Virus record (IMG/VR): IMGVR_UViG_3300042860_003408
Coordinates: 21,866 to 85,865 of that record
Reading direction: 5' to 3' (one strand)
Length of the DNA stretch: 64,000 nucleotides
From: a virus
Numbering within the stretch: the stretch's first letter is position 1; every line of letters begins with the position of its first letter. The notes under the pieces were generated by a model that saw nothing but the letters and a program-made list of their open reading frames with translations, had not been told where the DNA came from and made no database searches. The position numbers were made by a program, and so were the translations under genes. Positions 42,741 through 60,245 of the stretch are shown piece after piece.

Positions 42741-42758
42741 TTTTATTAATTTTAATTG

Positions 42759-42825
42759 TTGTCTATACAGGACTCGAACCTGTGACCTCGGATTTATCCG
42801 CGCACTCCCACCGCGCTAATAGACT
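42759..42825 (-). ncRNA. tRNA-like element TL1 (anticodon arm reduced to 4 bp + 4-nt loop)
   Basis: Minus strand GTCTAT-TA-GCGC-GGTGGGA-GTGC-G-CGGA-TAAA-TCCG-AGGTC-ACAGG-TTCGAGT-CCTGT-ATAGAC-AACA. Confidence 0.75.
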
Positions 42826-42834
42826 TCCAGTTTG

Positions 42835-43824
42835 TTATTGGATTGATATTTTTGACTTCATAAAAAGCTCGGCCTCTTTGAGACTAAACTTTTTTGCGAA
42901 ATCACTAATATCCTTTGTTTTGTATTTTTTATTAATGAACAAGAAATCGAAGCTATATTTGCTTACTATTTTTCTTGTAAACTGGACACCAGTTCTATCT
43001 CTATCATAAAAAATAACTATTTTTTTAAACCTCTCTTTGAGTTTGTTTAAAACAATCTCCGGAATCATTGTAGATTCACTTGGCGGAGAAATTGCATTAT
43101 ATCCTAATTCATGTAAAACCATTACGTCTTTCAGTGATTTAGTTATAATAAGCACATCCCCGCCTTCTGGAAGTTGCTCATATCCCATTATATCTAATGA
43201 CGATAAATTGCCCCTCCATTTGTTTATCTTTTTTCCAAGTGGTCTGTAGATTTTAAATTTGTCAAATACCTTATACGAATAAATTGGATCTTCTTTCGTA
43301 TAAGTTGCCTTTATCTCTCCATCTACTGAGTACAGAGATATCGCGTTAACTCGATAAGTGGAAAGTGTTTTTTCAGATATTCCAAATTCAGCCCAAAACG
43401 CAAGGTCTTGAGCTGTCATTGCTTTTCTTTTTACAGATATCTGCTTCTTCCTGCTAACGAATGTATATTTGCTACTAGGCTTATTGCTCATCTTATATCC
43501 GACATTAAAGTCACTAATAATCTGGCTCATCACTTCACTATACTTTCGTAGACCGAAAAGGTTTTTTACAAATTTAAATGCGTCTCCGCAATCGCCATTG
43601 GCTAAGTCTTTATATAATAGAGCGTTATCCCTATTGCTTACAAAAATGCCAAATGACGGATTTGAGTCTTCTCTGAGAGGAGATTTAATTGTCTGTCCGA
43701 CTCTTATATCTCCTATATACTTTCTAAAAATGTCATATTCTGACACTATTTCAAGTACATCACTTTTCGTTATCATGCTCTTAGACTCGGTATCGCTTAT
43801 ATGTTTTTTTGTATCATAAAGCAT
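42835..43824 (-). CDS. dnaG: DnaG-family primase (crAss-type)
   Basis: SPLRED.NPSF, GD.FKFV, TOPRIM-region IITKSLKDVM, FYDRDRTG and KDISD motifs. Confidence 0.9.
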   Translation of the reverse strand: MLYDTKKHISDTESKSMITKSDVLEIVSEYDIFRKYIGDIRVGQTIKSPLREDSNPSFGIFVSNRDNALLYKDLANGDCGDAFKFVKNLFGLRKYSEVMSQIISDFNVGYKMSNKPSSKYTFVSRKKQISVKRKAMTAQDLAFWAEFGISEKTLSTYRVNAISLYSVDGEIKATYTKEDPIYSYKVFDKFKIYRPLGKKINKWRGNLSSLDIMGYEQLPEGGDVLIITKSLKDVMVLHELGYNAISPPSESTMIPEIVLNKLKERFKKIVIFYDRDRTGVQFTRKIVSKYSFDFLFINKKYKTKDISDFAKKFSLKEAELFMKSKISIQ

Positions 43825-43837
43825 TTTTACTTTTTAT

Positions 43838-44440
43838 TTAGAATGGAGAATCTTCTACTGTTGCTGTTTTTGGCGTTGCTCCAAACACGCTTGCAGAAGT
43901 TTCAGCTTCTGGCTCGGTATCAAGAACTTGTCTTTCAAACTTATCAATAGATAATTGGCTAATTTTTGAATCCGACGAGCTAATCGTCATAGGCTCAATA
44001 AATGTGTATTTATAATATCTTGGAAGTCCGGTAAAACCGTTATTTCCATATACTACCTTAAGACGCACTTTGGTCTTTGGAGCGTTATTAATTAACGCAA
44101 CCACCCATGCAGCAAAACCTGCGAACGAGTCACCTGTAAATACTAATACTTCTTTAGGATAAAAACACTTAAGGATTTGCATAATCCTTTTTACCTGGCC
44201 ATCAGCCTTTGCTTGTAATGATTCATCTGATTCATCACCAAATTTCTTTGGTTCATATTCAGTTTGACTTACTTTAGCTCCATCTCTTTCGAACAAGATC
44301 TCAATGTATTCGTTTCCGTTAGTCGATCTGTCTTGTTTCGCCGATACAAGGTCCACATTCTCATGTATCCCTGCATCTAGGTATTTAACGTCTTTAGTTT
44401 CAACGTTAAAACCGATACTTGTATTAAATATCATATTCAA
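43838..44440 (-). CDS. Putative single-stranded DNA-binding protein
   Basis: Beta-rich, with acidic C-terminal tail ending EDSPF; lies between the AAA ATPase and primase. Confidence 0.55.
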   Translation of the reverse strand: MNMIFNTSIGFNVETKDVKYLDAGIHENVDLVSAKQDRSTNGNEYIEILFERDGAKVSQTEYEPKKFGDESDESLQAKADGQVKRIMQILKCFYPKEVLVFTGDSFAGFAAWVVALINNAPKTKVRLKVVYGNNGFTGLPRYYKYTFIEPMTISSSDSKISQLSIDKFERQVLDTEPEAETSASVFGATPKTATVEDSPF

Positions 44441-45174
44441 TCTTTTATATATATTCTATCCCAATGAGCAGTAATTCTGCCCTCATCATCACTCTCTGCC
44501 ACAACAATTTCTTTTCCACGTAAGTGAGCCTGTCTTGCTTCCACAATAAAGTCTCCTCCTCCATTGAAATTGAAAATTGTCTGATTTTTAACGCGATAAC
44601 AATACGCTATTGCGTCTGCATCTGCGGCTACCAATCTAGCAGTTTTTCCTGATAAGTCTATTGACATTTCTGACAACTCTTTTCCTTCTTTGTTAATCAA
44701 CGTATCTTTTACGTGGGCAACTAGAATTAAGTGAGGAGTTAGCGTCCTAAACATATCTATAACTTTAAAAAATGCTTCTCTAAGATAAAGGTATCCGCCT
44801 CCATTTGGAAGCTTTCTGACATCTCCAGTATAGGTTTTGCCCATTGGAGTATCTTTATATAGTTTAAGAGCTAAATCTAAAACTATATCCTCTAGCTTAG
44901 TTGCATTATCTATAGTTATATATTGATATGCATATCCTTTTACTTCTTCGTTTTTAGTCTTAATGCTTAATGCAATCTCAGATAAATCTGAAACTGATTT
45001 TGCTTTTACTACTAACGCTTCTATATAATCATATCCATCTTCTAAGTCAATTATTAAATTGCCTTCTAATCTAGATGCGACTTCTGATTTCCCCGCTTTT
45101 GGTTTCCCAAAATAAATGAAGAACTTAGGATTACTGCTTGTTGGTTTTTGTTTAATTGTAGGTAATGTAATCAT
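44437..45174 (-). CDS. AAA/Sak4-like ATPase
   Basis: Walker A GKPKAGKS, IIDLEDG, ITIDNAT, ILVAH and DADAIAY motifs. Confidence 0.8.
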   Translation of the reverse strand: MITLPTIKQKPTSSNPKFFIYFGKPKAGKSEVASRLEGNLIIDLEDGYDYIEALVVKAKSVSDLSEIALSIKTKNEEVKGYAYQYITIDNATKLEDIVLDLALKLYKDTPMGKTYTGDVRKLPNGGGYLYLREAFFKVIDMFRTLTPHLILVAHVKDTLINKEGKELSEMSIDLSGKTARLVAADADAIAYCYRVKNQTIFNFNGGGDFIVEARQAHLRGKEIVVAESDDEGRITAHWDRIYIKD

Positions 45175-45204
45175 TTTTTGATTATTTTTCTACGCATAAA
45201 AAAG

Positions 45205-45243
45205 ATTTGAATGTATTTGAATTTATTTGAATTTATTTGAATT
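45205..45243. repeat. 10-bp tandem repeat (ATTTGAATTT-type, ~4 copies)
   Basis: ATTTGAATGT-ATTTGAATTT-ATTTGAATTT-ATTTGAATT in the intergenic gap. Confidence 0.8.
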
Positions 45244-45254
45244 GCGCGGTTTTA

Positions 45255-45842
45255 TTAGCGAATTACGTTATAAATTAAGTAATTTACAGCATTGATTTCA
45301 GAACGGTTCAATCCGTAGATAGAAGCAGCACCAATAGTAGTTGTAGGGATTATGCTATAACCAACTTTGATGAAGTTGCTAAATACTTGAACTTTGATAC
45401 CGTCAACATAAGTCACATAAAGAGCGTCAGTTGTTGCTGGACGAGTATATACATAACTCATACGATAAGCATTTGCACGAGCAAATTCTGCACGACGAGC
45501 TTCTTCTTCAATGCGAGCTTTTTCTGCGGAAAATGCAGAGATTTTTGATACAATTGTAGACCAATCTTTGATTAAGTCATATACGGGCTTGTATCCTTTT
45601 TCACGGGCGTAATCAGGACGTTCTACCCAATTTACATCGTGATTTTTTGCAGTGCCGAATGTCAATAAGCTGCCTGCGCCTGCGTATTGAATGCCACGTT
45701 TTACATCAGGATTATCAAGGCCTGCTACTGTCAAGTTAGTATATCGTTTTGTAAGGATATCTACCAAACCTTTTTTGTAAAAACCACGTGGATCGTTAGC
45801 CAAAGTTGGCAATTCTACTGCAAATTTAAATGTATCTTTCAT
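45255..45842 (-). CDS. Hypothetical protein
   Basis: 195-aa ORF with CGT/GCT-rich codon usage. Confidence 0.75.
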   Translation of the reverse strand: MKDTFKFAVELPTLANDPRGFYKKGLVDILTKRYTNLTVAGLDNPDVKRGIQYAGAGSLLTFGTAKNHDVNWVERPDYAREKGYKPVYDLIKDWSTIVSKISAFSAEKARIEEEARRAEFARANAYRMSYVYTRPATTDALYVTYVDGIKVQVFSNFIKVGYSIIPTTTIGAASIYGLNRSEINAVNYLIYNVIR

Positions 45843-45855
45843 AAAATGAACGTTT

Positions 45856-46854
45856 TTAATTTTTTATATCTAATTTTAATTGACTGTCATTTTCGACGGT
45901 CGTTTGTTTTGGTTCTATTAAGTTATTATGCTTTAAATCATTAATGAATCTTAATATTTTAGAGTCTCCTTCCCTATTTTTAGTGAAGTGCAAGTACACC
46001 ATGTCTTTTGTTGGCAGATTCTCGTATCCATACGTCAATATGCCTAAGATTTCCGGTCTATGAATAATTATAACATAGTCGCTTGCTTGAAACACAGCAT
46101 CAGATGAGGCAATATCACTTCTTTGAGGATAATGCAATGAAGGGTTGTTAATCCTTTCTGGCGCTTCAATATTTCTATTCATTTGTGCTATTTGAATAAT
46201 TGACGTTTTGCCAATTTTCTTTAAAGCTATTAATTCCTTTTCTAGTTCCACTATTACAGATCTTTCAGAATCCGAGTTTGAATTTCCCCTTACCAATAAA
46301 GTGTGATCTATAATCACTACAAGCCATTTATCTTTGGCTATTGTTTTTTGGAAAAATTCTATTGTAGCTTTTATTTCGTTTACAGTTCCGGGATTATCCA
46401 CATAATATACTGGATAGTCCTTTATTGTTCGAGCCTTTGATTCTATCTCGCTAAATTCATCGTCGGATATAGCTCCTTTATCCGATGCCGAGTACAACTC
46501 AGAAGTAGTTTTTCTTAATTTATAAGAGAGTTTTCTACCGATTTGCTTAGCTGAAATCATTTCAAAGCTAAAGCTTAAAACAACAACTGCTTCATCTTTA
46601 TTTAAATCTATAATGTCTGTTTCTAATGTATTTACAAATGATGATTTACCGCTTCCAGATATACCTGCTATAGTATATACTGCATTTGGTTCAATTCCGC
46701 CCATTGCTAGCTTATTGAATTTATCCCATCTGGTTCGCAATGATCTTACAATAAATCTTCTTCTGTCATTAATGTATTTTACTATATCACTCGTAGCACT
46801 TGATATGTGCTTGAATTCAAGTATTTTTGGTTGGTTAAACAACTTCGGTTCCAT
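45856..46854 (-). CDS. dnaB: DnaB-family replicative helicase (motor domain)
   Basis: GISGSGKS, FSFEM, IIDH, AQMNRNIE, DAVFQASD and HFTKNREG motifs. Confidence 0.9.
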   Translation of the reverse strand: MEPKLFNQPKILEFKHISSATSDIVKYINDRRRFIVRSLRTRWDKFNKLAMGGIEPNAVYTIAGISGSGKSSFVNTLETDIIDLNKDEAVVVLSFSFEMISAKQIGRKLSYKLRKTTSELYSASDKGAISDDEFSEIESKARTIKDYPVYYVDNPGTVNEIKATIEFFQKTIAKDKWLVVIIDHTLLVRGNSNSDSERSVIVELEKELIALKKIGKTSIIQIAQMNRNIEAPERINNPSLHYPQRSDIASSDAVFQASDYVIIIHRPEILGILTYGYENLPTKDMVYLHFTKNREGDSKILRFINDLKHNNLIEPKQTTVENDSQLKLDIKN

Positions 46855-47401
46855 AGGAAATTGTTTTTGGCTCGTCTGAATAAATAATAGCTTTGGATTT
46901 TTCCAAATAAACTAAATATTCTTCTGAGGTTAACCATTTATACATTCTTTTCATATAACTCATTTTGTTTGAAGCTCTTTTTTCTGCTAGCTCAGCCTTT
47001 AGGGCTGTCATCACTTCGTTGTGCTTAGTTTCGCTTTTGCCTACTAATTTATTATAGACAACACGTGCTCTATTTACATCGCTTCTTAAGTAATCTCTAG
47101 ATCCGTCTGTTCGAATCGAGTATACTGGGTATGAGTCGTAAAATTCACTGAAAAAATCTTTTGTTCCGATGGCCTTTTCCATTTCTGGAGTCAATTTTAG
47201 TCTTGATAAGGTTGGAGTGAATAAAGAATCTTTTGTAAATATGTTTAAGCTAATTAGTTTATCAATATCTGAACCACTTATGTTTAGTGTTTCTTTTATC
47301 GGTGCGATATTAATTTTATCGATAACTAGCCTAATTAATAGAAACTGGTTGATTGTTAATTTGAGGCGTTTAGCCTCCAGCAAATCTAGTTCTACCAGCA
47401 T
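46835..47401 (-). CDS. Putative replication initiator / helicase-loader-like protein
   Basis: FSEFYDSYP...YMK...KWL..E.Y motif typical of phage initiator C-terminal domains; overlaps dnaB. Confidence 0.55.
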   Translation of the reverse strand: MLVELDLLEAKRLKLTINQFLLIRLVIDKINIAPIKETLNISGSDIDKLISLNIFTKDSLFTPTLSRLKLTPEMEKAIGTKDFFSEFYDSYPVYSIRTDGSRDYLRSDVNRARVVYNKLVGKSETKHNEVMTALKAELAEKRASNKMSYMKRMYKWLTSEEYLVYLEKSKAIIYSDEPKTISYGTEVV

Positions 47402-47645
47402 AGTATGTTTTTTATTGTGTTTAAAAAATCTGTACTATTTGGATATATTTGAATTGATTTGTATGGGAAACAATAAAATATATAAGTTCAAGGTCATGTG
47501 CACATCTTATATTACTGGCATGGCTCAGATTATTTTATTGTTTTTATTTTTAAATAAGTATATTTTCTACTCTCGTACCCTCACTTGAACGGTTAAAGTT
47601 CAATCTGTGTAGATTTAGGCTATTCATACATACTTATTTTTTTTG

Positions 47646-47712
47646 TTGAAATTAGGGACTCGAACCCAACTATTGATTTTTTGTCACAAAAATAATAGGA
47701 CCATTAATTTCT
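47646..47712 (-). ncRNA. Degenerate tRNA-like element TL2
   Basis: T-arm GGG-TTCGAGT-CCC, GAAAT/ATTTC closing pairs and GACAAAAAATC loop shared with TL4. Confidence 0.35.
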
Positions 47713-47713
47713 T

Positions 47714-48475
47714 TTACAAGACGAAGTCAAATTCTATTGCTTCAGGAATTGCTTCATTTGATATTGATTCTTGTCCTGCCTCAGCAGAACCGCTTTCTTT
47801 AAGAGCTTCGCTCTCTTTTACTAACTCATCAAACTTTTCAGTTTCAAAGGTAATAAACTTTTTTGTCTTTTCTGCTTTTTCCAAAGCAAGTATTAATGCA
47901 TCTTTCGTTAATACAGAGTCTTTTTCTACGAACTTCTCTATTATCTGATTAAGATTTAATCCTGCGATTGAAATGTTTTCAAGGCCAAATAATTTCTCTT
48001 CTTTTGAATTTGATATCATTTTGGCTGTATGAGAGCAATCTGCTAGAAAATATTTTACTAAATCTTCTGTTGTGTTAATTACAACATAGATTTGCTCTTT
48101 TACACCTCTAAAGTAAGAGGACATGCAATCTCTGTTAAAAATAGATGATACAACTCTTTCTGGCCCAAGCAATGACAATATGTTTTTTAATTCCACGTTA
48201 TCTTCTTTTGACCCAAATTTTATTAAATCATCGCCAATACATTTGTGTTTTAACACCTCTATATTGTGTCTTGAGCATTCGTACTTAAATGAATCTACTC
48301 CTGTTGAACTAAAATTATTTCTTCTAATTCTTTCAAGGGCTGTAGCTTTTATTATTCTTTTTGAATAATATTCAAAGTCAGTAACGATTGGAATTACTCC
48401 AGTCATATCAGACATCCTGTTTACTATGTCTATTACTAGGCTGTTCTCAACTCCTTTTTCTACTAAGTATACCAT
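47714..48475 (-). CDS. Hypothetical protein
   Basis: 253-aa ORF. Confidence 0.7.
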   Translation of the reverse strand: MVYLVEKGVENSLVIDIVNRMSDMTGVIPIVTDFEYYSKRIIKATALERIRRNNFSSTGVDSFKYECSRHNIEVLKHKCIGDDLIKFGSKEDNVELKNILSLLGPERVVSSIFNRDCMSSYFRGVKEQIYVVINTTEDLVKYFLADCSHTAKMISNSKEEKLFGLENISIAGLNLNQIIEKFVEKDSVLTKDALILALEKAEKTKKFITFETEKFDELVKESEALKESGSAEAGQESISNEAIPEAIEFDFVL

Positions 48476-48477
48476 GG

Positions 48478-48909
48478 TTATTCTTCAAATTTGAAATCGG
48501 TATCCTTATTGAAGTTGTCAATCATTTCAGATAGTTTATCTATCTCAACATTTATTTCCTGAAGATCACCATCGATTTTCTTTTTAGAAATAACGCCGTT
48601 TGTTGTGTACTTCTTAAGGCCCAATAGTTTTACTTTTTGTTCTTTAAGCTGTTGCAATGCGAAAATGGTTGGATATATACAATCCTCTGGCAAGTCTTCA
48701 ATTTTCTTTAAGCCCATATTAGCTGCTTGAATAGCAACTTTTATGCCTACTAATTTAATTGAATCCGAAATGATTGTTTTCATTAAGGCATCAACATTGT
48801 AGTGTGATTTTGATTTGTCAACTTGATTGAACGCATATATACGTTCCCAATTTTTTTTAATGTCACTTATTAGCGACTCGCGTTTTGAAATTAATTCGTT
48901 TGTTTTCAT
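48478..48909 (-). CDS. Hypothetical helical protein
   Basis: 143-aa ORF. Confidence 0.7.
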   Translation of the reverse strand: MKTNELISKRESLISDIKKNWERIYAFNQVDKSKSHYNVDALMKTIISDSIKLVGIKVAIQAANMGLKKIEDLPEDCIYPTIFALQQLKEQKVKLLGLKKYTTNGVISKKKIDGDLQEINVEIDKLSEMIDNFNKDTDFKFEE

Positions 48910-48959
48910 ATGATTTTGATAATTTTTTATTGATTAATTAAAATCATAGACTGGAAATC

Positions 48960-49035
48960 GTAAGGATTTTGGATTTGAACCAAATAGCCCACTAACTCAG
49001 GCTCGAATTATAAACCTGCCATAGTTGCATCCCCT
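48960..49035 (-). ncRNA. tRNA-like element TL3 (no proper anticodon arm, long variable arm)
   Basis: GGGGAT/ATCCTT acceptor, AACT/GGTT D-stem, GCCT..GGGC variable stem, TTTGG-TTCAAAT-CCAAA T-arm. Confidence 0.55.
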
Positions 49036-49042
49036 TATTTTA

Positions 49043-49120
49043 TACAGACTACACGCATGCTATCTTTTATGGAGTTACCCAATAGCAATACATGTAGTTT
49101 GACGGAGTTACCCAACTGTA
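49043..49120 (-). ncRNA. Structured motif with two TTGGGTAACTCC copies
   Basis: 12-bp direct repeat at 49071-49082 and 49104-49115 inside nested stems TACAG/CTGTA, ACTACA/TGTAGT and TGCTA/TAGCA. Confidence 0.5.
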
Positions 49121-49136
49121 ATTTTTTTTGAATACG

Positions 49137-49622
49137 CTATTCCTCGTTTTCGATAATGACAAGGTGATTGCCATTATGAATTCTATCAGCAATGATTTCA
49201 GCGAAGCTTAATCCTTTCTGATATCTAAAAATTCGGGACTTTCCTCCCTTTTTGTCTTTTATCCTAAGATTTACCTCATCCTCACCGTCGTCTGGTAATT
49301 CTGGGTCTTCGTCGCTTAAATAAGCTGAGAATAAAAGACGGATGACCGAATTTCGGTCGTTTGTGGCAAATAATACTGCTATTGATTTAGCGCAAAGACT
49401 AGAAGCATATACCAAATCTTTCTTTTCAACATCGAGTTTTGCCAAGATGTCTTGTACCACAGTAAGGAAATCCTTACGTGGTTGAGTTAGATTTAGTATT
49501 TTAATACGGCTAGTAGCCATTATTATGCTTCCATCGTCAAGAACAAGTACTTTGCTATCGTATACCGACAACTCCCCTATGAGGATTGTCAGCAATGCTT
49601 TTTCTACTTCTCCTAGCTTCAT
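49137..49622 (-). CDS. Hypothetical protein
   Basis: 161-aa ORF preceded by AGGAG. Confidence 0.7.
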   Translation of the reverse strand: MKLGEVEKALLTILIGELSVYDSKVLVLDDGSIIMATSRIKILNLTQPRKDFLTVVQDILAKLDVEKKDLVYASSLCAKSIAVLFATNDRNSVIRLLFSAYLSDEDPELPDDGEDEVNLRIKDKKGGKSRIFRYQKGLSFAEIIADRIHNGNHLVIIENEE

Positions 49623-49642
49623 GTCGACTCCTTTCTACGAGA

Positions 49643-50134
49643 TTACTCGTTTTCAGACTCGAATTGAGCTGCGGCCCGGTTGTTTGCTTCTTTTGCTGCT
49701 TTCAAGGCTGCAATTTGAGCGTCAACATCTTCGCGAATAATTGTCAAACGTACGATTTCTCCATCGTTTGCAGAATTTGCGATTTCGTTAGCTACAACGT
49801 AGTTGCCGAAAATATTACGAACTCCATCAGTCTCACCTTCGTATTGTGAAGATTTTTTGATGATTGACTCGATCTGTTGATCGTTTAGCTTCAATGGAGC
49901 GTTTGCATCTCCGTTAATTGCTGTGACCCGGATACCTCCAGTGAGGTCCAACTCGCGAATAGACTTAACGCGAACAGATTCAATTGTTGTAAGAACTGCT
50001 GGTTTAGCAATACGAACATCTTCTGATTTATTTTTGTGGTTGTCATCCACATCTACGGTTTTAAACGTGTGTAAGTGCTGGCCATAAAATTGACCGATTA
50101 ATACTTTTGGACTTACTTTTTTATTTGGGTGCAT
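49643..50134 (-). CDS. Hypothetical protein
   Basis: 163-aa ORF preceded by AGGAGG; CGT/CGC Arg codons. Confidence 0.75.
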   Translation of the reverse strand: MHPNKKVSPKVLIGQFYGQHLHTFKTVDVDDNHKNKSEDVRIAKPAVLTTIESVRVKSIRELDLTGGIRVTAINGDANAPLKLNDQQIESIIKKSSQYEGETDGVRNIFGNYVVANEIANSANDGEIVRLTIIREDVDAQIAALKAAKEANNRAAAQFESENE

Positions 50135-50471
50135 TTTTACCTCCTTTTTTAAAATTGATTTTTACTTGTTTTGATAACTTTTATTCCCAATGGTGCGCCT
50201 GAAAGGATTACATAACTCAAGGGAATCCATTTATAGGGTAAAAATATTTTTCCCAGACTCCTTCAATGCTAGTTGTTCCACACGGTACTAGACCCTGCAT
50301 TGGCACACCTAAGGTACTTAATATTTTTAAAGAAAATAGTCACGTTAATTACGATAACGTACAGGATCTTCACCTGCTCCGGATAACTTATATACTTACT
50401 CTGCAATGCTGGAGTGCATCGTTTTCGGTATAGCCATAGCCACTCAGACAATATTTATATGTAAATGCGAA

Positions 50472-50566
50472 ATAAGGCCATTTAGAGGCTCATACAGACA
50501 CTTTCTTGCAGGAAATGTAGTTCTGTACTACTCCAAAATCAGGATGGCTTAAAACGCCTTAAAATA
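50472..50566 (-). repeat. Dispersed phased element E6 (non-coding copy)
   Basis: Minus strand TATTTTAAGGCGTTTTAAGCC ... GAAAGTGTCTGTATGAGCCTCTAAATGGCCTTAT. Confidence 0.6.
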
Positions 50567-51943
50567 CGTTGTTGCTTTTATATACATATATGCAAATTTG
50601 AGATTTCTTCAACATTTGCCTCTATATCTCGGCATCGCGGGGAAATATGGTTGGGATAGAAGTATTGCAATGGCTAGTTGCCTGCGTTCTATAGCATTTT
50701 TTCTCGGATTTGTCCCGAGCCAGTACCATAATAAAGGAATGTATATAGGAATGTTTCCTGTTTGGAAATTGCCTAAATCATAATTGATCTTATAGCGACT
50801 CTCATCTAGTTCCTTCTATTCTAATGTGATAGGGTGTCCTAAGTCTTGTAGTGCCCCTTGAAGTGCACGCATCAATGGATTTGATTCCATCTAGATCTAT
50901 TGTTTTCTATCGGGCCAGCTGACCGATAATTTTAATTGCGCTGGTATGTAGACTACTATCGTGTGACTACTTTTATTACATCAGGCAAGGATTACTCGCA
51001 AAGGCTATGAATTCACTTTTACTTTCATTGGTGTACCGCCGCTCCTTTGGACAGATTGGTAGGCTTGCTTTCATGTGTTCTGCTTGGCTTGCAGTACCTT
51101 ATGTATTCGGTAGTTGGTCCAAGGATTCACGACTCGTAATATTGAATTCAATTTATGGTTTTTTACAGTGTTTGACCATCCACTGACTTATTTTCTGCGT
51201 ATTGATTGCAGGACTCATACTTACCGAGACAGGGTAGTACTACGAAATTCAAATAAGATTTGCTTGATGTCTGGCTAGGACATCTGACGCTATACACGCT
51301 ATAGCAGCGGGGATTTTTTTTCTCGTCCCTAGAGTAACAATTTCGTTATGCATATTTTAGCCTGCAGGACGGCATTAACTGTTTCCATGATTGTTTCCGT
51401 GTTATAAATCAGTTAAACTCGAACACGTCGATTGCGCTAAGACCATTCAGGGGGTCACGTATTATTCCAAATACTACTAGCCGTCTCAGTTTTCTATATT
51501 TTACCCTCTATAGATTGTGCACACTTGACTGTGCGTGTAATTACATTCGCTACTTACTCCGAAGATTTCACTACTAGTGCATACAATTTTTCTGTATTTT
51601 TCAGCGCGGTTCCAAAGCCTACAACTGAATATTATGTCATTATTTTAGCTGACTTGCATTACCGCATAAATTCGCATCTCTCCATCTAAGGATCAGGGTG
51701 TTTTACGGACGTCTTCCCCTCGGTTTTGTTTAAAATTCTTTTTACCCGGCTTTTCCCTCTCAACTACTTGCGTTCATTGCATGGTTAAATCCAACTCCTG
51801 TTTTTTATCGACCTTTAAACTAGTTCGCCTGCTTGTTATTTCACTTGGCTCGTGACTGCTCCATGTCGCTGAACTCGCGCATTACTAATAATAAAATGAC
51901 ACCAAAGTGCCCGTGTCTTCCATTTCCACCATCCCTACTTCGC

Positions 51944-52019
51944 ATTCAGGACTGAGATTCGAACTCAGAAATATTATTTCATAACGATTTTTTGTCTAAT
52001 AGGCAGATTTATTCCTACT
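51944..52019 (-). ncRNA. tRNA-like element TL4
   Basis: Perfect T-arm CTGAG-TTCGAAT-CTCAG, TAGGA/TCCTG acceptor pairs, GA-CAAAAAA-TC loop. Confidence 0.5.
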
Positions 52020-52327
52020 GTGCTGCTCGCAACCCCATGTTGCGCATTGCTTCGGATCCTAACTTAAACTTTAATTGTTAATATGTATTTGATTACACTC
52101 TATTTAGTATTGCAGTCCATCTCATACTGCGGTCTTTAAGCCAATTTTGCCGATTGGTTTTAGGAATACTGTTCGACAAGCTTTTGTTCTTGTCTAGCCC
52201 AATTACATTTCTGCAATCTTATCAGTAGTTTTATCGTCCACTACAGCTTAGCGATGACGCGCATGTTAACCGTTTTATATAGCGCCATGCATTGGCTGCG
52301 CTCTCCTATTTTTCAACATAGGATAAT

Positions 52328-52687
52328 TTAGTTATCTTTTGTTTCAACAAGGACAAATTGTCCGTCATCTAACTTAAGATACATGTTTCCGTTATCTACA
52401 GGGATATATCCATCTTCTACATCAGAAGAACTGATATAGTCAATATTATTGAACGAGTCTTTATAACCGTCCAATTTCCTGTAAAGTTCAAATATTCTTG
52501 ATTTTGCTAATTTTATTTTTATAGCCAAGCTATCAATTGCCTTTTTCATGTTGACTGAAACCTCTTCTTCTTTAATGTAGGTAATTTCTACTTGATAGAG
52601 TGTTTCCAACTGGCCTCTTACGTATATATACGGTTTAATTCGCTTAGAAATACTAAGCATAGAATTTACAATTTCTATGTTTGTCAT
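52328..52687 (-). CDS. Hypothetical protein
   Basis: 119-aa ORF. Confidence 0.7.
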   Translation of the reverse strand: MTNIEIVNSMLSISKRIKPYIYVRGQLETLYQVEITYIKEEEVSVNMKKAIDSLAIKIKLAKSRIFELYRKLDGYKDSFNNIDYISSSDVEDGYIPVDNGNMYLKLDDGQFVLVETKDN

Positions 52688-52698
52688 ATTCTTGTATT

Positions 52699-53103
52699 TT
52701 ATATTAGCATTATCACTTCTGAAATATCCATCCCAGGCGCTACATCGAGCAATACTATCGGAACTGGCAATTCTTCAATTTGAGCAACTAATTGCTCTTC
52801 ATCTCCAGTGTCACTGTCTACGCATTTTTCATTATGCGTAATATTGTCAGCTACTACTGTTAACTCTCGAAGTTCAACAGGACCAAACTCTTCTACCACT
52901 GGCATTTCCTCCTCCAAAACAACAGGAGATTCTGGCATGTCAATTAGTAGTTTTTGTTGAAATACAATTGATTTCTCAATTATTTTTCCCTCTTTGTATG
53001 CAAAGACTTCTTTTTCAGGCTTACTTGCACCTATTCCTACTGTCAACCCAAACGAGAACGACATGAAGAATAATATGGTACTAATTATACCCTTTTTCTT
53101 CAT
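52699..53103 (-). CDS. Hypothetical protein with N-terminal signal/membrane anchor and acidic tail
   Basis: MKKKGIISTILFFMSFSFGLTVG followed by an E-rich region. Confidence 0.65.
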   Translation of the reverse strand: MKKKGIISTILFFMSFSFGLTVGIGASKPEKEVFAYKEGKIIEKSIVFQQKLLIDMPESPVVLEEEMPVVEEFGPVELRELTVVADNITHNEKCVDSDTGDEEQLVAQIEELPVPIVLLDVAPGMDISEVIMLI

Positions 53104-53953
53104 AATCTTTTCGTTTTAAAAGTTCATTTCGTTTTAACGGAGAGCAGTGCTTTATAATCGAATCGATTCTTCTGCATACTGCTGTTCTATCACTCAAACC
53201 TTCCACCTCGCTTATAAAACTAATAGTTTTAGGGTCGTTTATGTAATAGTTTTTCATTGAAGACACTTTTGATAGAGTATCAACCACCATCATAGGGCGA
53301 CCTTCTTTTTCAAGAGGCGTTCTTCTGTTGATAGAATCATTCATAATCAAAGCAACATCCATATCGCTCCACGATTTTAAATGCTTCTTAATTGACAAAA
53401 ATGCTTTTGGTGCGCCATCATTCAATAGCGTATTTACAATGTATCTATCCCATAACTCAAATGGTTCATGGTTTTTGTACGCTTCGCGGATCGCTATCCA
53501 CGCTTTTGCATTTGGTAAAGCAGATTTATTCATTGAATTGAATATCTCCACTGCCTCTGCAATGTTTTTTGTAAACGAATGTGACATCAAAAAATCAAGC
53601 TGCTTCTTTTCAGGGTATTGCTTGTAGTTATCTTTTGTTACACGTTCATTAATTGTTTCCACCGGGGTAAACTCAATTACTTGTTGAGCTCCCATTGTTA
53701 TCGCTCTCATGCGATCTGGACCTACGACAAGAGATAATAAATCCTTGTCTATTTCAGACGGCGCCAATGCTTTCGCAATATTTTCAACATTGTTTCCAAT
53801 AGTGAATTGTAAGGCAGCCGACAATACTAGATATACTGCGTCCATTTGTTTTTCTAGAAAATCCTTTTCTTTGGAGCTTCTAGCTTTCAAAAAACGTTTC
53901 TCTAGTAATGAATGAAATTCCAGCATTTCTTTTGCGGTCATTTCAAATTTCAT
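53081..53953 (-). CDS. Hypothetical protein
   Basis: 290-aa ORF with AGGAGG upstream. Confidence 0.75.
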   Translation of the reverse strand: MKFEMTAKEMLEFHSLLEKRFLKARSSKEKDFLEKQMDAVYLVLSAALQFTIGNNVENIAKALAPSEIDKDLLSLVVGPDRMRAITMGAQQVIEFTPVETINERVTKDNYKQYPEKKQLDFLMSHSFTKNIAEAVEIFNSMNKSALPNAKAWIAIREAYKNHEPFELWDRYIVNTLLNDGAPKAFLSIKKHLKSWSDMDVALIMNDSINRRTPLEKEGRPMMVVDTLSKVSSMKNYYINDPKTISFISEVEGLSDRTAVCRRIDSIIKHCSPLKRNELLKRKDYEEKGYN

Positions 53954-54025
53954 TTTTCCCTCCTTTTTTGATAAAAGTTAATAATTTTTTTAAGACATTC
54001 AATTCAGTAATTTTTGGCCAAAAAG

Positions 54026-54406
54026 TTAGCTAGAATTTATGTCTATCAGATCAGATCTTGCTGCGTGCTCGCCTGGTGGCGCTTTTGCATTAAGATTAAT
54101 CACTTGCGACTTATCATGACTTCTTGAAACGAAAGTCATGGTAAGCATAGAGTGTCTGTTTGAATAGGACTCCACTTTCGTATTTGTCTGCAACTTCACT
54201 GAGACTGCAGTATACTTAATGGTATTCTCGGGCAAGACAACATCTAAATTAGTTACTAAGGCAGATATAGCTAGTACATCTTTCTTCAGCTCTGCTAGTT
54301 TAACTTCATCAGAAGCTATTATTGCAGAACTATAACCAACCGCGAAAAAGCTAAGGAGATACACTAGTCTTACTAGCATTTCCCATGTTTGATACATCTT
54401 CTTCAT
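54026..54406 (-). CDS. Hypothetical membrane-anchored protein
   Basis: N-terminal hydrophobic segment; overlaps the 3' end of the sigma-factor gene. Confidence 0.6.
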   Translation of the reverse strand: MKKMYQTWEMLVRLVYLLSFFAVGYSSAIIASDEVKLAELKKDVLAISALVTNLDVVLPENTIKYTAVSVKLQTNTKVESYSNRHSMLTMTFVSRSHDKSQVINLNAKAPPGEHAARSDLIDINSS

Positions 54407-54956
54407 CTTTTTTGAAATTGTTGATTAGTTTTTTTCTTTGACGACTTATTGTCGCTTTTACAGTTCCAATGGAAACCTTTAACTCATCTGCAATTTGCTG
54501 ATAAGTATATTCTTTTCCATATCGAAGGTCCATAATACGCCTAGAAGACTCTGGCATATCATCAATAATCTCCTCTATCGAGGATCTTGATTGTTTATTA
54601 ATAAGGTCTTTTTCAGGATTAGAGTTATCGGTGTAAATAACCTCGAATGTCTCATCATCGTCAATACTTATATTGCTATTCTCAAGAGCGCCACTCCTGA
54701 TTTTATCAATAATCACATTGTTTGTAACCTTTTTAACCCACATCTCGAACGAAATATCCTTTGAATATTTATGAATATTTCTGAAAATTTTAGCTATTAT
54801 TTCAGACGAAATATCTTCTTCATCTTCATTGTTTTTAAATACATTTCGCACTAATCGCCTTACAACTGGCTCGTATTCTTTGTATAAAACTAAAAATGCT
54901 TTCTGATTGTTTGATTTTGCCAAGTCGACAAATTCTTTTGTTTCTTCTTTTGTCAT
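54351..54956 (-). CDS. ECF-type sigma-70 family factor
   Basis: Region 2 AFLVLYKEY...EDISSEI..KIFRNI..Y...FEMWVKKVTNNVIIDKIR; region 4 HTH YTYQQIADELKVSIGTVKATISR. Confidence 0.88.
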   Translation of the reverse strand: MTKEETKEFVDLAKSNNQKAFLVLYKEYEPVVRRLVRNVFKNNEDEEDISSEIIAKIFRNIHKYSKDISFEMWVKKVTNNVIIDKIRSGALENSNISIDDDETFEVIYTDNSNPEKDLINKQSRSSIEEIIDDMPESSRRIMDLRYGKEYTYQQIADELKVSIGTVKATISRQRKKLINNFKKDEEDVSNMGNASKTSVSP

Positions 54957-54972
54957 AACTGTTATTTTTGTA

Positions 54973-55050
54973 TCCTTATGCTATATTCCAAGCATAAGGC
55001 CTATCCGGCTTTAATTACCACCATAACCGGACGTAGTTTTCCTGGTGGGT
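54973..55050 (-). promoter_or_regulatory. H-type pseudoknot plus hairpin in the sigma-factor leader
   Basis: CCACCA/TGGTGG stem interleaved with TCCGGTT/AGCCGGA, followed by a CCTTATGCT..AGCATAAGG hairpin. Confidence 0.5.
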
Positions 55051-55055
55051 TTCCC

Positions 55056-55715
55056 TCATTTCTTTTCATTTAGAATTATTTTAGGGGTTGTTCTTCTCAT
55101 TTTAACTCTTCCAAATTCATTTAAATAGTATTCATTTCCAGTTTTTGCTAAATATGTAGCTTTTTTATCAACTTTCCATGCATTTTTCATTAAATTCAAA
55201 ACTCTATCTAGCTCCAAAGTACTTTTTGGTCTATTAGTCGTCTTTATTGGATTTCTAAATTGTTCATAACATATTGAGTATTTTGCTTTTTCTACAATAT
55301 ACTCATTTTTTTCAGAATCCCATGGAGCAGTTATATCCCACTCTATTACTTTATATATATCTGGATTGCGCCAAATATCAATAAATGATTCTTTCTTCAA
55401 GTTTGAGCAATAAAATTTACCCATAGATATTTTAGCCAGGGTTTTATTTATTAATGAAGCTCTTTTCTCGTTTGTCATACCAAAAAATAATGTCCATAAC
55501 TCATACTTATATTTTGAATTAAATAGGATTAATAAATCTGGTAAGTTTTCATCACTTAGTCCAAGCGATATTCTTTTGCAAGCGCGACTCCAATATTCCA
55601 TAAATATATGATGACTTTGCGGATACAATATCTGCATTGCAACTCTATATTTAACGTCCTCTGACATCCAAATAGGACACCACCCAGGATTATTTTTGTT
55701 ATTTTCCCAATACAT
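55056..55715 (-). CDS. Hypothetical protein
   Basis: 219-aa Trp-rich ORF. Confidence 0.7.
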   Translation of the reverse strand: MYWENNKNNPGWCPIWMSEDVKYRVAMQILYPQSHHIFMEYWSRACKRISLGLSDENLPDLLILFNSKYKYELWTLFFGMTNEKRASLINKTLAKISMGKFYCSNLKKESFIDIWRNPDIYKVIEWDITAPWDSEKNEYIVEKAKYSICYEQFRNPIKTTNRPKSTLELDRVLNLMKNAWKVDKKATYLAKTGNEYYLNEFGRVKMRRTTPKIILNEKK

Positions 55716-55897
55716 ATTGATTATGTTAGAATTAAAAAAATTTATATCTGCTTAATGCATATCTTTAATACGCCAACACTTCGTATGGATGCTAAAGGCG
55801 TTTATGAATTGAATTCACAAATGCCAATGTAAGCAATAGTTTAGCTAGAATATAAGCTCAATTGGCCAAAACATTTGGTTTCTTTGCTTATATTTCA

Positions 55898-56326
55898 CTA
55901 GAACGGTAATTCGTTCAACATAAATTCTTTTAAATCTTGTTCTTTTAACTTTTGATTAAAACACTCATTTCTTGCTAAATTCAGCAATGACTTCTTAGCA
56001 ATAGAATTACTAATTTGTCTTTCAAAAATAGAAAATAATAAATTTAACGACGCATCAAAACCCTTAAACTTATTCAATGAATTTAAATTAGACTTCAAAT
56101 TGCAAAACAGATTCCATTCGTTTTCATTTATAAGATTTACATTCTTAATCGTGTACCTATTATTTTTCCATAATTTAAGACCTTCAATCTTTTCTAATTC
56201 TTCAAGGTCATTGCTTTCCTTTAATGTGTAAATGTTTAGTCCTAAGTAATCATTATAACCATATGTATCGAATCTATGAATGTTTATATTCTTATTCTCC
56301 TGGTCAAATGTTGCTAAGACTACCAT
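55898..56326 (-). CDS. Hypothetical protein
   Basis: 142 aa, ends NELPF; TAATG coupling. Confidence 0.7.
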   Translation of the reverse strand: MVVLATFDQENKNINIHRFDTYGYNDYLGLNIYTLKESNDLEELEKIEGLKLWKNNRYTIKNVNLINENEWNLFCNLKSNLNSLNKFKGFDASLNLLFSIFERQISNSIAKKSLLNLARNECFNQKLKEQDLKEFMLNELPF

Positions 56327-56691
56327 TATGTTGCTTCTTTAAATAATAAATAGTTTAATGATTTCTTTCTCTTTATTATTGTCTCCAGTGCAGTATCTTT
56401 GCTTGACGATCGCTGAAATATATCTTTATTATGAGATAGTTCAACAATTGCTATTACATAGAAAATGTAATTTACTACTGGTATCAATGGTTTTAGTAAG
56501 GCCAAGAAAAAAGCCCATGTCTTGAACATTGTCCGTCCAAGCGCCTTTGCTTCTTTTTCCTTAAAACCTCTGTTTTTGTACGCCCATACCTTTTCCTCGA
56601 ACAATATTCTTAGGCAAGATATTGTTAGGTCTAAGTATAATATCACTATAGCGATATATACTCCTAAAAATGTAACTAATAATTCTGTCAT
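56326..56691 (-). CDS. Hypothetical membrane protein
   Basis: Two hydrophobic segments. Confidence 0.65.
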   Translation of the reverse strand: MTELLVTFLGVYIAIVILYLDLTISCLRILFEEKVWAYKNRGFKEKEAKALGRTMFKTWAFFLALLKPLIPVVNYIFYVIAIVELSHNKDIFQRSSSKDTALETIIKRKKSLNYLLFKEAT

Positions 56692-56930
56692 TTCTCTTTT
56701 TTTTAATTGTTTTTTATTTTGATAATAAAGTTTGCAATAAGACAGGATTTATGAGTTGTTCAAATAGATACCCCTTCTTAGGTGTCCACAAATTAGCATT
56801 GATAGGTTTGCTAGCACCTACCTTCCCGTCTACATATTTTCATAATCAACTAAGTCTTTTGTTTAGTCTAATTTGAATTCATCCTCCACCGACCACTTTT
56901 ATGCTTATGTAGTCTTTTCTTATTGCAATC

Positions 56931-57106
56931 GTAGGCAGTCACCGCATTGAAGGGTAGGCCCGAAGCCCGACTGCCCTAGAGCATGATTAACCAGCGTAAG
57001 CTAGTTCAACATACTCATTTCTGAATTGAATTGTTTTGTTGCCATTTATTGGCGTATATAGTCCTATCTATACCAATTCTGACGCCAATCAATACTATAC
57101 ACCCCC
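56931..57106 (-). ncRNA. ssrA: tmRNA coding piece (permuted gene); 3' end approximate
   Basis: Starts GGGGGTGTATAGTATTGA; ATAAAT-GGC resume context; tag frame 57043-56987 encodes GNKTIQFRNEYVELAYAG-TAA; downstream GGCAGTC/GACTGCC stem. Confidence 0.8.
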
Positions 57107-57349
57107 TTTTGTTATCTTATTCCCTGAAAATGAAAAACCTTTCATCCTTTTTATTTGTGAGCAAAAATCATTAAATGTTTTTATTTCATTTTTTGGTTTT
57201 TGTTCAATATAAAACAAATGAGAATAAAATCTATTTTCACCTTCACTAGAATATACTCCTACACAAATTACTTGAATATTTTTTATTTCTTCAAATAAAT
57301 TTTGTATCGACTCTTTTAGTGTAGCTCCATTGCATGTAATTGTCTTCAT
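57095..57349 (-). CDS. Hypothetical protein inside the tmRNA intervening segment
   Basis: 84-aa ORF; its last codons (GGG GGT GTA TAG) overlap the tmRNA 5' end. Confidence 0.6.
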   Translation of the reverse strand: MKTITCNGATLKESIQNLFEEIKNIQVICVGVYSSEGENRFYSHLFYIEQKPKNEIKTFNDFCSQIKRMKGFSFSGNKITKGGV

Positions 57350-57366
57350 TCTTAATTTTTAATTAG

Positions 57367-57437
57367 TGGAGGTGGGGCTTTCGAGGTCCCGTCTTGCTCG
57401 TCCATGATACAGCCTATTCCATTGCTGGTTTTTCGGG
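57367..57437 (-). ncRNA. ssrA: tmRNA acceptor piece (permuted gene); 5' end approximate
   Basis: ...TAGGCTGTATCATGGACGAGCAAGAC-GGGAC-CTCGAAA-GCCC-CACCTCC-A. CACCTCC pairs with GGGGGTG at 57106 and gives G3:U70. Confidence 0.8.
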
Positions 57438-57767
57438 CTATATTTCGTATAGTTTTAGGCCGACTCTTCTATTGATTTCATCAACAAGAGCATAGCCTAT
57501 CCTAATTCCATCAGTTACTGAAATAATAGTATCGTTGTCATGAAAATCCAATAACTGAACCTCGCGATTCACTATTGCTTTTAAGTCAGCATTACTGTAA
57601 TTTTTCAATAACTTATTTCGTAATTTCTTTTGCTTTTTAATGTCGCGTATTCTTACAACAACCTTGATTGAATTTGTAAAATTAGTGAACAGTTTTATTG
57701 TGGCAACAACTTCCTCTCTGCTATCGTTTGAGTGCAAAGATACTCGATTAAAATCTTCTTGCTTCAT
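57438..57767 (-). CDS. Hypothetical protein
   Basis: 109-aa ORF. Confidence 0.65.
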   Translation of the reverse strand: MKQEDFNRVSLHSNDSREEVVATIKLFTNFTNSIKVVVRIRDIKKQKKLRNKLLKNYSNADLKAIVNREVQLLDFHDNDTIISVTDGIRIGYALVDEINRRVGLKLYEI

Positions 57768-57883
57768 CTTATATTATTGATTAATAAATTTATTGTTTAG
57801 GGTACTCATGTTCACACACTTTCCCCATGGGCCGTTTGGTAACGACATCCACCAATTGACGATTTAACTGGCTGTACGATCGT

Positions 57884-58165
57884 CTATTTCGTTCGGTAAA
57901 TCCAATCGTATTTAAATGATTTACCTATTTCTGGTATTTCGTCTCTTTCCAGTCTTAATGGAAAGTTTACATATGCTCCAGAATTGTTTTTTGAATTAAA
58001 TTCTACTCTGGGCATTTCAAATACGTAAATTTCATTGTTTTTTGATATTTCTATCTTATTACATTCGATTTCAATTGGATTTTTTGCTGTAGTCCACCCA
58101 TGCTCTTCCATTAATTTTGAAAAAGACACAGATATTTTTTCTCCTGGGTTAATTTTTGTTTCCAT
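57884..58165 (-). CDS. Hypothetical protein
   Basis: 93-aa ORF. Confidence 0.65.
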   Translation of the reverse strand: METKINPGEKISVSFSKLMEEHGWTTAKNPIEIECNKIEISKNNEIYVFEMPRVEFNSKNNSGAYVNFPLRLERDEIPEIGKSFKYDWIYRTK

Positions 58166-58398
58166 TGACTAGTCTATTTCTTTTATTTTCACTCTGAAGA
58201 TTTGACCCTCAATTTCAAATTCATGCAACTCTCCATCTGAATTATTGAACTCTTCTTTGTCTAAACATTCAATTTTTGTTGCATTACATGCTTTTTTTAT
58301 TTCATCTGAATGAAACTGCAATACTTTTTCTAATTCCATGCAATTCACTTGTACATAATACGCCTGTATTTAATAATTTTTCTTTTGTCCACTTCATA

Positions 58399-58530
58399 TC
58401 AAATCCTTTCCTTTTTAGTGAATGGATTCATTTTTGGCTTTTTCTTGCCTTTTATAGCAATTATCTCCTTGGCAATAATCTCCTTTGTCCCAGGACCGGT
58501 TTTGTCTCTTAATCTAATTGTGTTTCCCAT
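58399..58530 (-). CDS. Small basic hypothetical protein (43 aa, not in ORF track)
   Basis: MGNTIRLRDKTGPGTKEIIAKEIIAIKGKKKPKMNPFTKKERI-TGA. Confidence 0.4.
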   Translation of the reverse strand: MGNTIRLRDKTGPGTKEIIAKEIIAIKGKKKPKMNPFTKKERI

Positions 58531-58569
58531 ATTGATTACAGAATTTGTTGTTTTTAACTATTTTAATTG

Positions 58570-58771
58570 TGGGGATAGCCAGAGTCGAACTAGCTATTTT
58601 AATCTTCTTTAATGCCTATATCTACAATTGCTTTTCGAAATCCAATTATGTTTATTTGCATTCAGGTGAGATTACGTGATTAGGGTATGCCTAGTCTTGC
58701 AAGTCGGCGAACAGTTATCATCTGTTCTCGGCCTTAGGCATAGATTTCCCCATCCATTTCACTCTATCCCC
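58570..58771 (-). ncRNA. tRNA-like element TL5 with large structured insertion
   Basis: Perfect acceptor GGGGATA/TATCCCC-A, T-arm GCTAG-TTCGACT-CTGGC and D-loop-like AAATGGA; long interior with TATGCCTA/TAGGCATA and GAACAG/CTGTTC stems. Confidence 0.65.
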
Positions 58772-58779
58772 GTATTTTG

Positions 58780-58861
58780 TGCCACTTTAGAGATTCGAAC
58801 TCATCAGTCCATTTCTGGTTTCCGGTTCCTTATTAGGGCTATCATCCCAATAAGTAGTGGC
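58780..58861 (-). ncRNA. tRNA-like element TL6
   Basis: GCCACT/AGTGGC-A acceptor, GAG-TTCGAAT-CTC T-arm, CTTATTGGG/CCCTAATAAG hairpin in place of the D-arm. Confidence 0.55.
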
Positions 58862-59241
58862 GTTTGGTTAAAGCAATGAAGACTAATTTACTATCACCTA
58901 TCATTAATAGAAGATTAAGATTTGCGCTTGCATCATTGCTTTAATTTTTGACTCTTATTTGCAGTTAGTATCATACTGTATAAGTCAATTTCAGTCCTTG
59001 CAGTGGAATAAATATTTGTACGTAGTTTTCTCCACATGGGAGGACGTGGCTCGATTAGTATTACGATTGCAATCTCTACAAACTATTTCACGCTCTTTTT
59101 ACATATTTACATCTAACAAACTAATCACCTGCATGTGATTGATAATTATATCACTAAGCTACATTCACACTTAAGTGAAGAGGCTATTCTTAGATTTTTC
59201 GTCCTTAATTATCTATTGCTTCAATCTGAAATTGATTTATT

Positions 59242-60227: not shown

Positions 60228-60245
60228 ACTGTTATTGATTAATAG

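Follow-up and report, generated by a model that had tools for sequence, protein, structure and literature searches.

Six tRNA-like elements, TL1 to TL6, are embedded in the minus-strand early and replication module of a crAss-like phage, and are tentatively interpreted here, from their position and shape, as cis-acting tRNA-like processing signals for RNase P and RNase Z. They lie within the window, the whole 64,000-nt stretch of DNA analysed, which comprises bases 21866-85865 of the 85.9-kb IMG/VR virus record IMGVR_UViG_3300042860_003408 (completeness 83%). The window has a crAss-like layout with giant plus-strand open reading frames (ORFs) of 6070 and 2343 amino acids, and the early and replication module occupies the minus strand from ~35.9 kb to the contig end. 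A first-pass annotation of this DNA had treated the six as one family of tRNA mimics. They are instead several unrelated families: TL1, TL2 and TL6 each represent a conserved family of their own, TL5 stands alone, and TL3 and TL4 are doubtful. Sequence comparison supports selection on the fold of TL1, TL2 and TL6. The elements are as follows.

42755-42825, minus strand: TL1, identified by the Rfam tRNA model (38.1 bits), its fold (z -1.4) and covariation in orthologs; 5-bp T-stem, T-loop TTCGAGT.
47641-47719, minus strand: TL2, identified by its fold (z -1.1), a relaxed ARAGORN call and orthologs in G001, G004 and G005; 3-4-bp T-stem, T-loop TTCGAGT.
48960-49037, minus strand: TL3, characterised by its fold (z -1.6), a relaxed ARAGORN run and ortholog comparison; 5-bp T-stem, T-loop TTCAAAT.
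51944-52063, minus strand: TL4, a T-arm-like hairpin (51952-51968) in a multi-hairpin domain; 5-bp T-stem, T-loop TTCGAAT.
58566-58771, minus strand: TL5, fold of -53.7 kcal/mol (z -3.0); 5-bp T-stem, T-loop TTCGACT.
58776-58861, minus strand: TL6, identified by its fold (z -3.9), family covariation and a score of 82.6 bits with model R2; 3-bp T-stem, T-loop TTCGAAT.

All six occur where the first-pass annotation had placed them, on the minus strand, outside ORFs and between minus-strand ORFs, and each has the TTCRA T-loop it described. Its further description of a T-arm stem combined with end-to-end acceptor pairing holds for elements such as TL1 and TL5 but not for TL4 as then delimited, whose acceptor does not close (z -0.03). 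Similarly, the absence of a usable anticodon arm is an apt description of TL1 and TL5 but not of TL2, TL3 and TL6, which have arms of 7-11 bp bearing loops of 6-8 nt with U33-like and NNN-purine features and the anticodon-like triplets GAC, AAU and GAU, respectively. A canonical 7-nt anticodon loop on a 5-bp stem is found in none of TL1, TL2, TL3, TL5 and TL6. ARAGORN in default mode calls none of the six, its sole call in the window being a canonical tRNA-Glu; TL1 passes the 29-bit cut-off of the Rfam tRNA model (RF00005), and TL2-TL6 have no match to that model even at E<=10. A strict descriptor, requiring a G53-C61 T-arm with a loop of the form ..CRA.., all of pairs 2-7 and an AC trailer, was applied to 239 kb from six early regions and returned 10 matches on the gene strand and 0 on the opposite strand, with a mean of 0.45 matches on 20 block shuffles.

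TL1 is a cloverleaf whose anticodon end has been capped. An acceptor of 6 bp plus an A.A at 1-72, a D-arm with GG and a T-arm followed by A73-CAA surround an anticodon stem, CGGA/UCCG, that is closed by the 4-nt loop UAAA; the Rfam alignment leaves just 2 nt between the strands of this stem. The element starts 9 nt past the primase stop codon, and 19 nt separate position 72 from the next ATG. With the primase gene as bait we retrieved 80 related loci, and after collapsing those with the same element 12 distinct loci remained at a primase identity of at least 52%. An element directly behind primase is clear in 10 of these 12 and weak in one (L018), at primase identities of 52-60%, and L004 has no TL1-like element at this place. 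It starts 4-9 nt past the primase stop in 8 of 11 loci regardless of which gene follows, and where a gene of 287-293 amino acids lies downstream an A/U-rich leader separates position 72 from its ATG, which follows at 18-20 nt (4/4 loci). The orthologs fold as cloverleaves in which a short capped hairpin replaces the anticodon arm, the cap being GAAA in L002, L005, L009 and L020, GUAA in L015 and UAAA in the window; a copy in G001 scores 27 bits.

As MAFFT had misaligned the 5' halves of the orthologs, TL1 covariation was assessed with R1, a covariance model built from three TL1-family sequences. At E<0.001 with filters off, R1 recovered four more syntenic copies (window, L015, L006 and L020); L017 and L008 were weak, L007 matched by its T-arm only, and L013 and L018 were missed. 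In the resulting seven-sequence alignment, which is fitted to the model, 95% of cells are paired and 20 of 22 pairs show changes on both sides, a level reached in 0 of 500 shuffles and compared with 28-43% in slid controls. Across nine family sequences 158 of 166 cells pair, while pair 1-72 forms in only two of eight, so that in effect the acceptor has 6 bp and position 1 is a conserved A left unpaired. The elbow is kept throughout: GG persists at the D-loop position and C56 and A58 are present in every T-loop, even where AGCGATA or TGCAATT replaces TTCRA.

The architecture of TL6 departs further from a cloverleaf. An acceptor (6 bp plus A.A) leads into a 9-bp bulged arm with the loop AUGAUAG(C). 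CGGAAA comes next, then a GAAA-capped hairpin of 3 bp, a T-arm with a 3-bp stem and A73-CAA. The element stands 8 nt upstream of TL5. The layout corresponds to D-stem strands placed on either side of an anticodon arm, with a GG-bearing, D-loop-like stretch behind. A 9/3 or 8/4 division between acceptor and T-stem gave no fit by inspection. Look-alikes of 82 nt in G004 and 69 nt in G005 were found by descriptor and one in G001 by BLAST, and a pattern scan of IMG/VR yielded 13 TL6-like stretches, including some on contigs of 405 kb and 116 kb. Elsewhere these elements also lie between same-strand ORFs, with the next ORF beginning 14-28 nt after the extracted stretch. The family shares an arm loop AUGAKAG(C) with CNGGAA behind it; a 3-bp hairpin, capped by a GNRA or UNCG tetraloop, may come next. 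RNAalifold on a MAFFT alignment of 13 rows returned the acceptor stem, the 9-bp bulged arm and the T-arm with 16 of 19 pairs compensatory, and a direct pair count on this alignment gave 86.5% of cells paired and compensatory changes in 16 of 20 pairs (slid controls, 23-52%). Among 44 sources searched, model R2 exceeds 57 bits only in G000, G001, G004 and G005.

TL6 forms the end of a further conserved region, given by the following line.

58862-59246, minus strand: conserved non-coding, RNA-like stretch that runs up to TL6; identity to G005 is ~80% in its upstream part.

Upstream of TL6, positions 59108-59246 (minus strand) are 80% identical to G005 and weakly match Rfam RAGATH-7 (20.9 bits against a cut-off of 111.8). 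As separate observations, the 405-kb jumbo phage G024 carries between 312000 and 363000 a cluster of 39 tRNAs called by ARAGORN that cover 19 amino acids plus a CUA suppressor and include none for Ile; a non-canonical tRNA-like gene lies within this cluster at 330129-330210, with ACGGAA behind its arm as in TL6, and L191 18130-18211 was grouped with these tRNA and tRNA-like features of G024.

TL2 is AT-rich and its register is ambiguous. Depending on register the acceptor has 5-7 pairs; the T-stem is weak (GGG/CCC plus mismatches), a long arm carries the loop GUGAC(A)A and ACAA follows. It starts 1 nt past the stop of the upstream ORF (family range, 1-13 nt), and its orthologs in G001, G004 and G005 lie behind the stop of the same upstream gene. 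Common to the family are a short acceptor stem, a T-arm whose outer pairs compensate, a stretch containing GG, and the ACAA trailer. Here too the 5' halves were misaligned by MAFFT, and TL2 covariation rests on inspection of the orthologs. The 11-mer GACAAAAAATC that the first-pass annotation reported as common to TL2 and TL4 is present in both; only GACA of it survives in either element of G004, so most of the shared run is probably due to chance.

For the remaining three elements the earlier suggestion of selection rather than decay is not supported. In TL3 the 5-bp T-arm is perfect and the acceptor has 6 pairs, of which two are G.U; a D-arm is absent, and a long arm ends in the 7-nt loop AUAAUUC. 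The gap that holds it is conserved, yet no TL3 ortholog was found there, only G005 holding a tRNA-like element, which is unrelated (16 bits). The same gap contains TTGGGTAACTCC(G/A)T twice, 33 nt apart (49069-49115, minus strand), with variants in the corresponding gap of G001, G002, G004 and G005; this repeat may be a promoter or operator in a phage that has a sigma factor of its own. Extended to 120 nt (51944-52063), TL4 closes with 7 pairs including two G.U (UUAGGAU/GUCCUGA; z -1.0). A clearly homologous domain in G004 has a different hairpin at the place of the T-arm and no T-loop. TL4 lies near the 5' end of a larger region.

50135-52327, minus strand: ORF-poor region of 2.2 kb without credible ORFs.

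Syntenic regions of 1.55-1.95 kb in G001, G002, G004 and G005 contain short conserved islands in the same order, and 50135-52327 probably corresponds to one large structured RNA or to several small ones in a row. A GCGCTATATAAAA-like box occurs near the start of this region in all five genomes.

TL5 is convincing as a tRNA shell around an insert of ~150 nt. The shell comprises a GGGGAUA/UAUCCCC acceptor of 7 Watson-Crick pairs, the 5-bp T-arm and A73-CAA, and two long hairpins make up the interior. No TL5 homolog was found in 23 records, three of which gave chance matches of 17-22 nt only, nor by blastn of all fetched loci. TL5 was also considered as an intron-bearing tRNA and rejected, as ARAGORN with introns calls nothing and Rfam detects no group I core. 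More distant crAss-like phages have RNAs of 114-176 nt that are shaped like tRNAs and carry a large insert where the anticodon would be (L021 2093-2207, L043 1854-2027, 2157-2277 and 2284-2434, L048 2411-2586 and L055 2756-2910). These RNAs are interspersed with genuine tRNAs immediately upstream of primase, and most of them have ACAA or ACAT as trailer.

The sequences flanking the elements resemble those of real tRNAs in the clade. TL1, TL2, TL5 and TL6 are followed from position 73 by ACAA, as is tRNA-Glu, in agreement with the first-pass annotation; the trailers of TL3 and TL4 are ACGA and ATGC. Of 34 distinct canonical tRNAs called by ARAGORN in the window and the crAss-relative loci, 12 have ACAA at positions 73-76, 5 have ACTA, 4 have ACAT and 0 have ACCA. 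AC occupies 73-74 in 24 of these tRNAs and A stands at -2 in 22; all 13 TL6-family sequences have this A. That the elements carry the flank signature of the clade's true tRNAs supports processing by host enzymes.

Taken together, these features are consistent with a model in which the elements are tRNA-derived structured RNAs built into long minus-strand early and replication transcripts. What would be retained is what host end-processing enzymes read, namely the acceptor/T-arm stack, the T-loop with its GG partner in the elbow, an A discriminator and the flanks of real tRNAs. Cleavage by RNase P at the 5' side of an element would leave the upstream message ending a few nucleotides past its stop codon, cleavage by RNase Z after A73 would allow the downstream RNA to begin with a short A/U-rich leader, and the CCA-adding enzyme may then tail the released tRNA-like RNA of 65-200 nt. 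We infer cleavage and tailing from the folds, the selection on them, the positions and the flanks described above. Such a role as processing punctuation in cis would be the simplest mechanism, and is the favoured one among those considered, for elements that sit inside operons at gene ends and have a conserved top, elbow and flanks, with an anticodon end that is capped, replaced or altered.

Several points weigh against this model. The AUGAKAG loop and the CNGGAA motif of TL6 are kept in four crAss relatives, beyond what processing needs, and UGACA recurs in the TL2-family loop in three of four sequences on otherwise unrelated stems. Conservation of this kind hints at an extra or a different partner. 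In the window TL6 and TL2 have only 3-bp T-stems and would hence be poorer substrates for RNase P and RNase Z. TL5, TL6 and tRNA-Glu cluster in an RNA-rich island that is more like a tRNA array than strictly placed between protein genes. In the comparative evidence, three of the seven rows in the TL1 alignment are seeds of the model, and a pattern fixing three motifs supplied 10 of the 13 TL6 rows; the four crAss-relative copies, found by descriptor or BLAST, display these motifs independently of the pattern.

One alternative is that TL6 above all, and perhaps TL2 and TL3, are working tRNAs of an unconventional kind, with D-stem and anticodon stem merged into a single long hairpin. On this view TL6 would decode Ile (anticodon GAU) and TL2 would decode Val (anticodon GAC). 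The 9-bp bulged arm of TL6 can be divided into 5 + 4 pairs, the loop A-U-G-A-K-A-G provides U33-like and A37-like bases with CNGGAA next, and the small tetraloop hairpin, absent in G005 and L179, appears as dispensable as a variable arm. The ACGGAA stretch behind the arm of the G024 gene inside a tRNA cluster and the lack of an Ile tRNA among the 39 of that phage fit this proposal, as does the tRNA-Val(gac) that ARAGORN at -ps80 calls over TL2 (47645-47719), among obvious false positives. We nonetheless regard decoding as unlikely. The TL6 loop may have 7 or 8 nt and covariation at columns 18-29 favours 8 nt, closed by G19-C28. Position 36 of the loop is U in eight and G in five of the 13 sequences on one and the same body, which would switch decoding between Ile and Leu. 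The T-stem has only 3 pairs in both the window and G001 copies, and the TL6-like element of G024, with a GAG loop, lies between ORFs 20 kb outside the tRNA cluster. In the TL2 family, a UAAU tetraloop in G005 and a 10-nt loop in G004 indicate that its members are not a set of decoders. The proposal is inapplicable to TL1 or TL5.

A second alternative places the function in trans, with the elements acting after release and CCA addition as top-half tRNA mimics that decoy or sponge defences or toxins which read the acceptor, T-arm or 3' tail. The conserved half is exactly the one that such enzymes read, and the GNRA or UNCG tetraloops capping the anticodon stem would suit a compact and stable RNA. 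A defence that reads the acceptor/T-arm half does exist in Cas12a3 (PMC12851939), and the authors of that work note that viral tRNAs are not readily able to circumvent the defence. The elements are single copies in each genome, which lends no support to high abundance, and a cis role explains more simply why they are tightly wedged between ORFs; neither a defence nor a host is known for this phage. We therefore consider a trans role rather improbable, and more doubtful again the fuller scheme of a set of mimics with absent or disabled anticodons, released and tailed by host RNase P, RNase Z and CCA-adding enzyme, that soaks up Cas12a3-type nucleases or toxins. The first-pass annotation had proposed decoys against anticodon nucleases. 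This version is weak because a decoy must still be bound, and TL1 and TL5 offer nothing to enzymes that read the loop; as directed against defences that read the acceptor/T-arm half, a decoy is possible.

The view that the elements are decaying tRNA pseudogenes without present function is the least convincing and would be a surprising outcome; neutral decay is very unlikely for TL1, TL2 and TL6 and less so for TL3 and TL4, since TL3 and TL4 lack conserved orthologs, TL5 has no homolog, the T-stems of TL2 and TL6 are weakened in the window and TL2 seems derived from tRNA-Val(GAC), whereas the stems of TL1, TL2 and TL6 have wholly changed in sequence with pairing kept at the same gene junctions in relatives of 50-70% protein identity, and no relative has an intact tRNA in place of TL1 (L002-L020 yielded 0 tRNA genes with ARAGORN and none with Rfam at the gathering threshold).

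Several known RNAs resemble individual elements. Phage T4 stable RNAs C and D (species 1 and 2) lie in a tRNA cluster, combine acceptor-stem and T-arm ends with a non-tRNA interior and are processed with the tRNAs, their function being unknown. Their described layout resembles that of TL5; TL5 has no detected homolog. The tRNA-like domain of transfer-messenger RNA (tmRNA) likewise places an acceptor stem and T-arm around a large insert, but has the alanine identity pair G3.U70 where TL5 has G3-C70, and ARAGORN and Rfam find no tmRNA. MascRNA and the MEN-beta RNA are tRNA-like folds at the 3' end of a long non-coding RNA, where RNase P makes that 3' end. TL6 similarly ends a conserved non-coding stretch, although those systems are eukaryotic and nuclear; no TL matched the mascRNA-menRNA model (RF01684), which detected only the true tRNA-Glu at 22 bits against a cut-off of 42.5.

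The closest functional comparison is with the t-elements of plant mitochondria. These are located at the ends of mRNAs (Forner et al. 2007, PMC1920247). According to an Arabidopsis tRNA-seq preprint (10.1101/2024.09.09.612099), RNase P and RNase Z cleave them, and they are CCA-tailed and base-modified but not aminoacylated. They share with the TLs a tRNA-like fold at mRNA ends in polycistronic transcripts and the lack of an encoded CCA, and they do not decode, as is proposed for the TLs; the TLs, like them, place such a fold on the coding strand abutting the ends of coding regions. They differ in being homologs of organelle tRNA genes in organelle genomes rather than elements of a bacterial virus, and in that cleavage is demonstrated for t-elements and predicted for the TLs. 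Furthermore, unlike in t-elements, the anticodon loop of TL1 is replaced by a designed-looking tetraloop and the core of TL6 is rearranged.

The minus-strand module that surrounds the elements includes the following annotated features, and a scan of early ORFs against Pfam and PHROGs also found an AAA_24 ATPase in it.

42835-43824, minus strand: primase (phrog_12622).
45856-46854, minus strand: DnaB-like helicase, from the Pfam/PHROGs scan of early ORFs.
54351-54956, minus strand: sigma-70/ECF-type sigma factor (Sigma70_r2, E 6e-12; r4_2, E 7e-12).
59817-59889, minus strand: canonical tRNA-Glu(UUC) with an ACAA trailer, called by ARAGORN and Rfam and used as the flank reference.

The nearest annotated phage is cr118_1 (Suoliviridae), with a helicase identity of 65%. 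Among GenBank phages, megablast found no close DNA relative of 42000-60500 and blastn with a TL6-like element as query found no close relative. No tRNA-processing or repair enzyme was detected among 30 early ORFs (Pfam on all 30, PHROGs on 10). Orthologs of the sigma factor occur in G001, G004 and G005. A scan for sigma-70 promoters and terminators was uninformative. Locus retrieval based on the helicase returned a more distant clade and no orthologs; in that clade tRNAs and tRNA-like elements cluster upstream of primase, which shows the breadth of their occurrence. Group I introns (77-80 bits) were observed ~2.2 kb upstream of primase in L005 (545-794) and L007 (516-786). Two freshwater metatranscriptome runs from one study contained 0.09 and 0.06 of the sampled words of 50100-60000 and were counted for nothing.

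Together with ~150 nt behind it, tRNA-Glu forms a stretch (59673-59895, minus strand) that is 83% identical to G005 over 224 nt; both GATTGCCGCGCGGGCTACAAATGAGCAA and a strong terminator hairpin lie within it. Its conservation greatly exceeds that of the neighbouring proteins, which show 25-75% identity where an ortholog exists, with none in this stretch. A permuted tmRNA and a hammerhead had also been suggested from the DNA. At the place of the former (56931-57437, minus strand) ARAGORN and Rfam report no tmRNA, and both are silent on the hammerhead, which was examined by these scans only.

The Crassvirales are among the most abundant phages known and their RNA biology is almost unstudied. 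Our literature search, supplements lying outside it, found no paper describing these elements, and a preprint reports two low-scoring tRNA 'pseudogenes' in another crAss-like phage. While tRNA-like processing elements are known as a kind, what is new about these variants is their occurrence in a phage, the cloverleaf capped by a tetraloop and the architecture of TL6. Elements of this type are missed by tRNA finders or classed as pseudogenes, and the alignments obtained for TL1 and TL6 could serve to seed models of new RNA families. The tetraloop-capped TL1 also represents a clean natural substrate for defining the requirements of RNase P, RNase Z and the CCA-adding enzyme. Were TL6 a working tRNA it would be a decoder that is not a cloverleaf, and a decoy role in trans would constitute a new class of RNA anti-defence with no cost to the phage in translation errors. 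If the elements are processing marks, punctuation by tRNA mimics would extend from organelles and nuclear long non-coding RNAs to a bacterial virus, and would account for the division of long early and replication transcripts into units in hosts without Shine-Dalgarno-led initiation.

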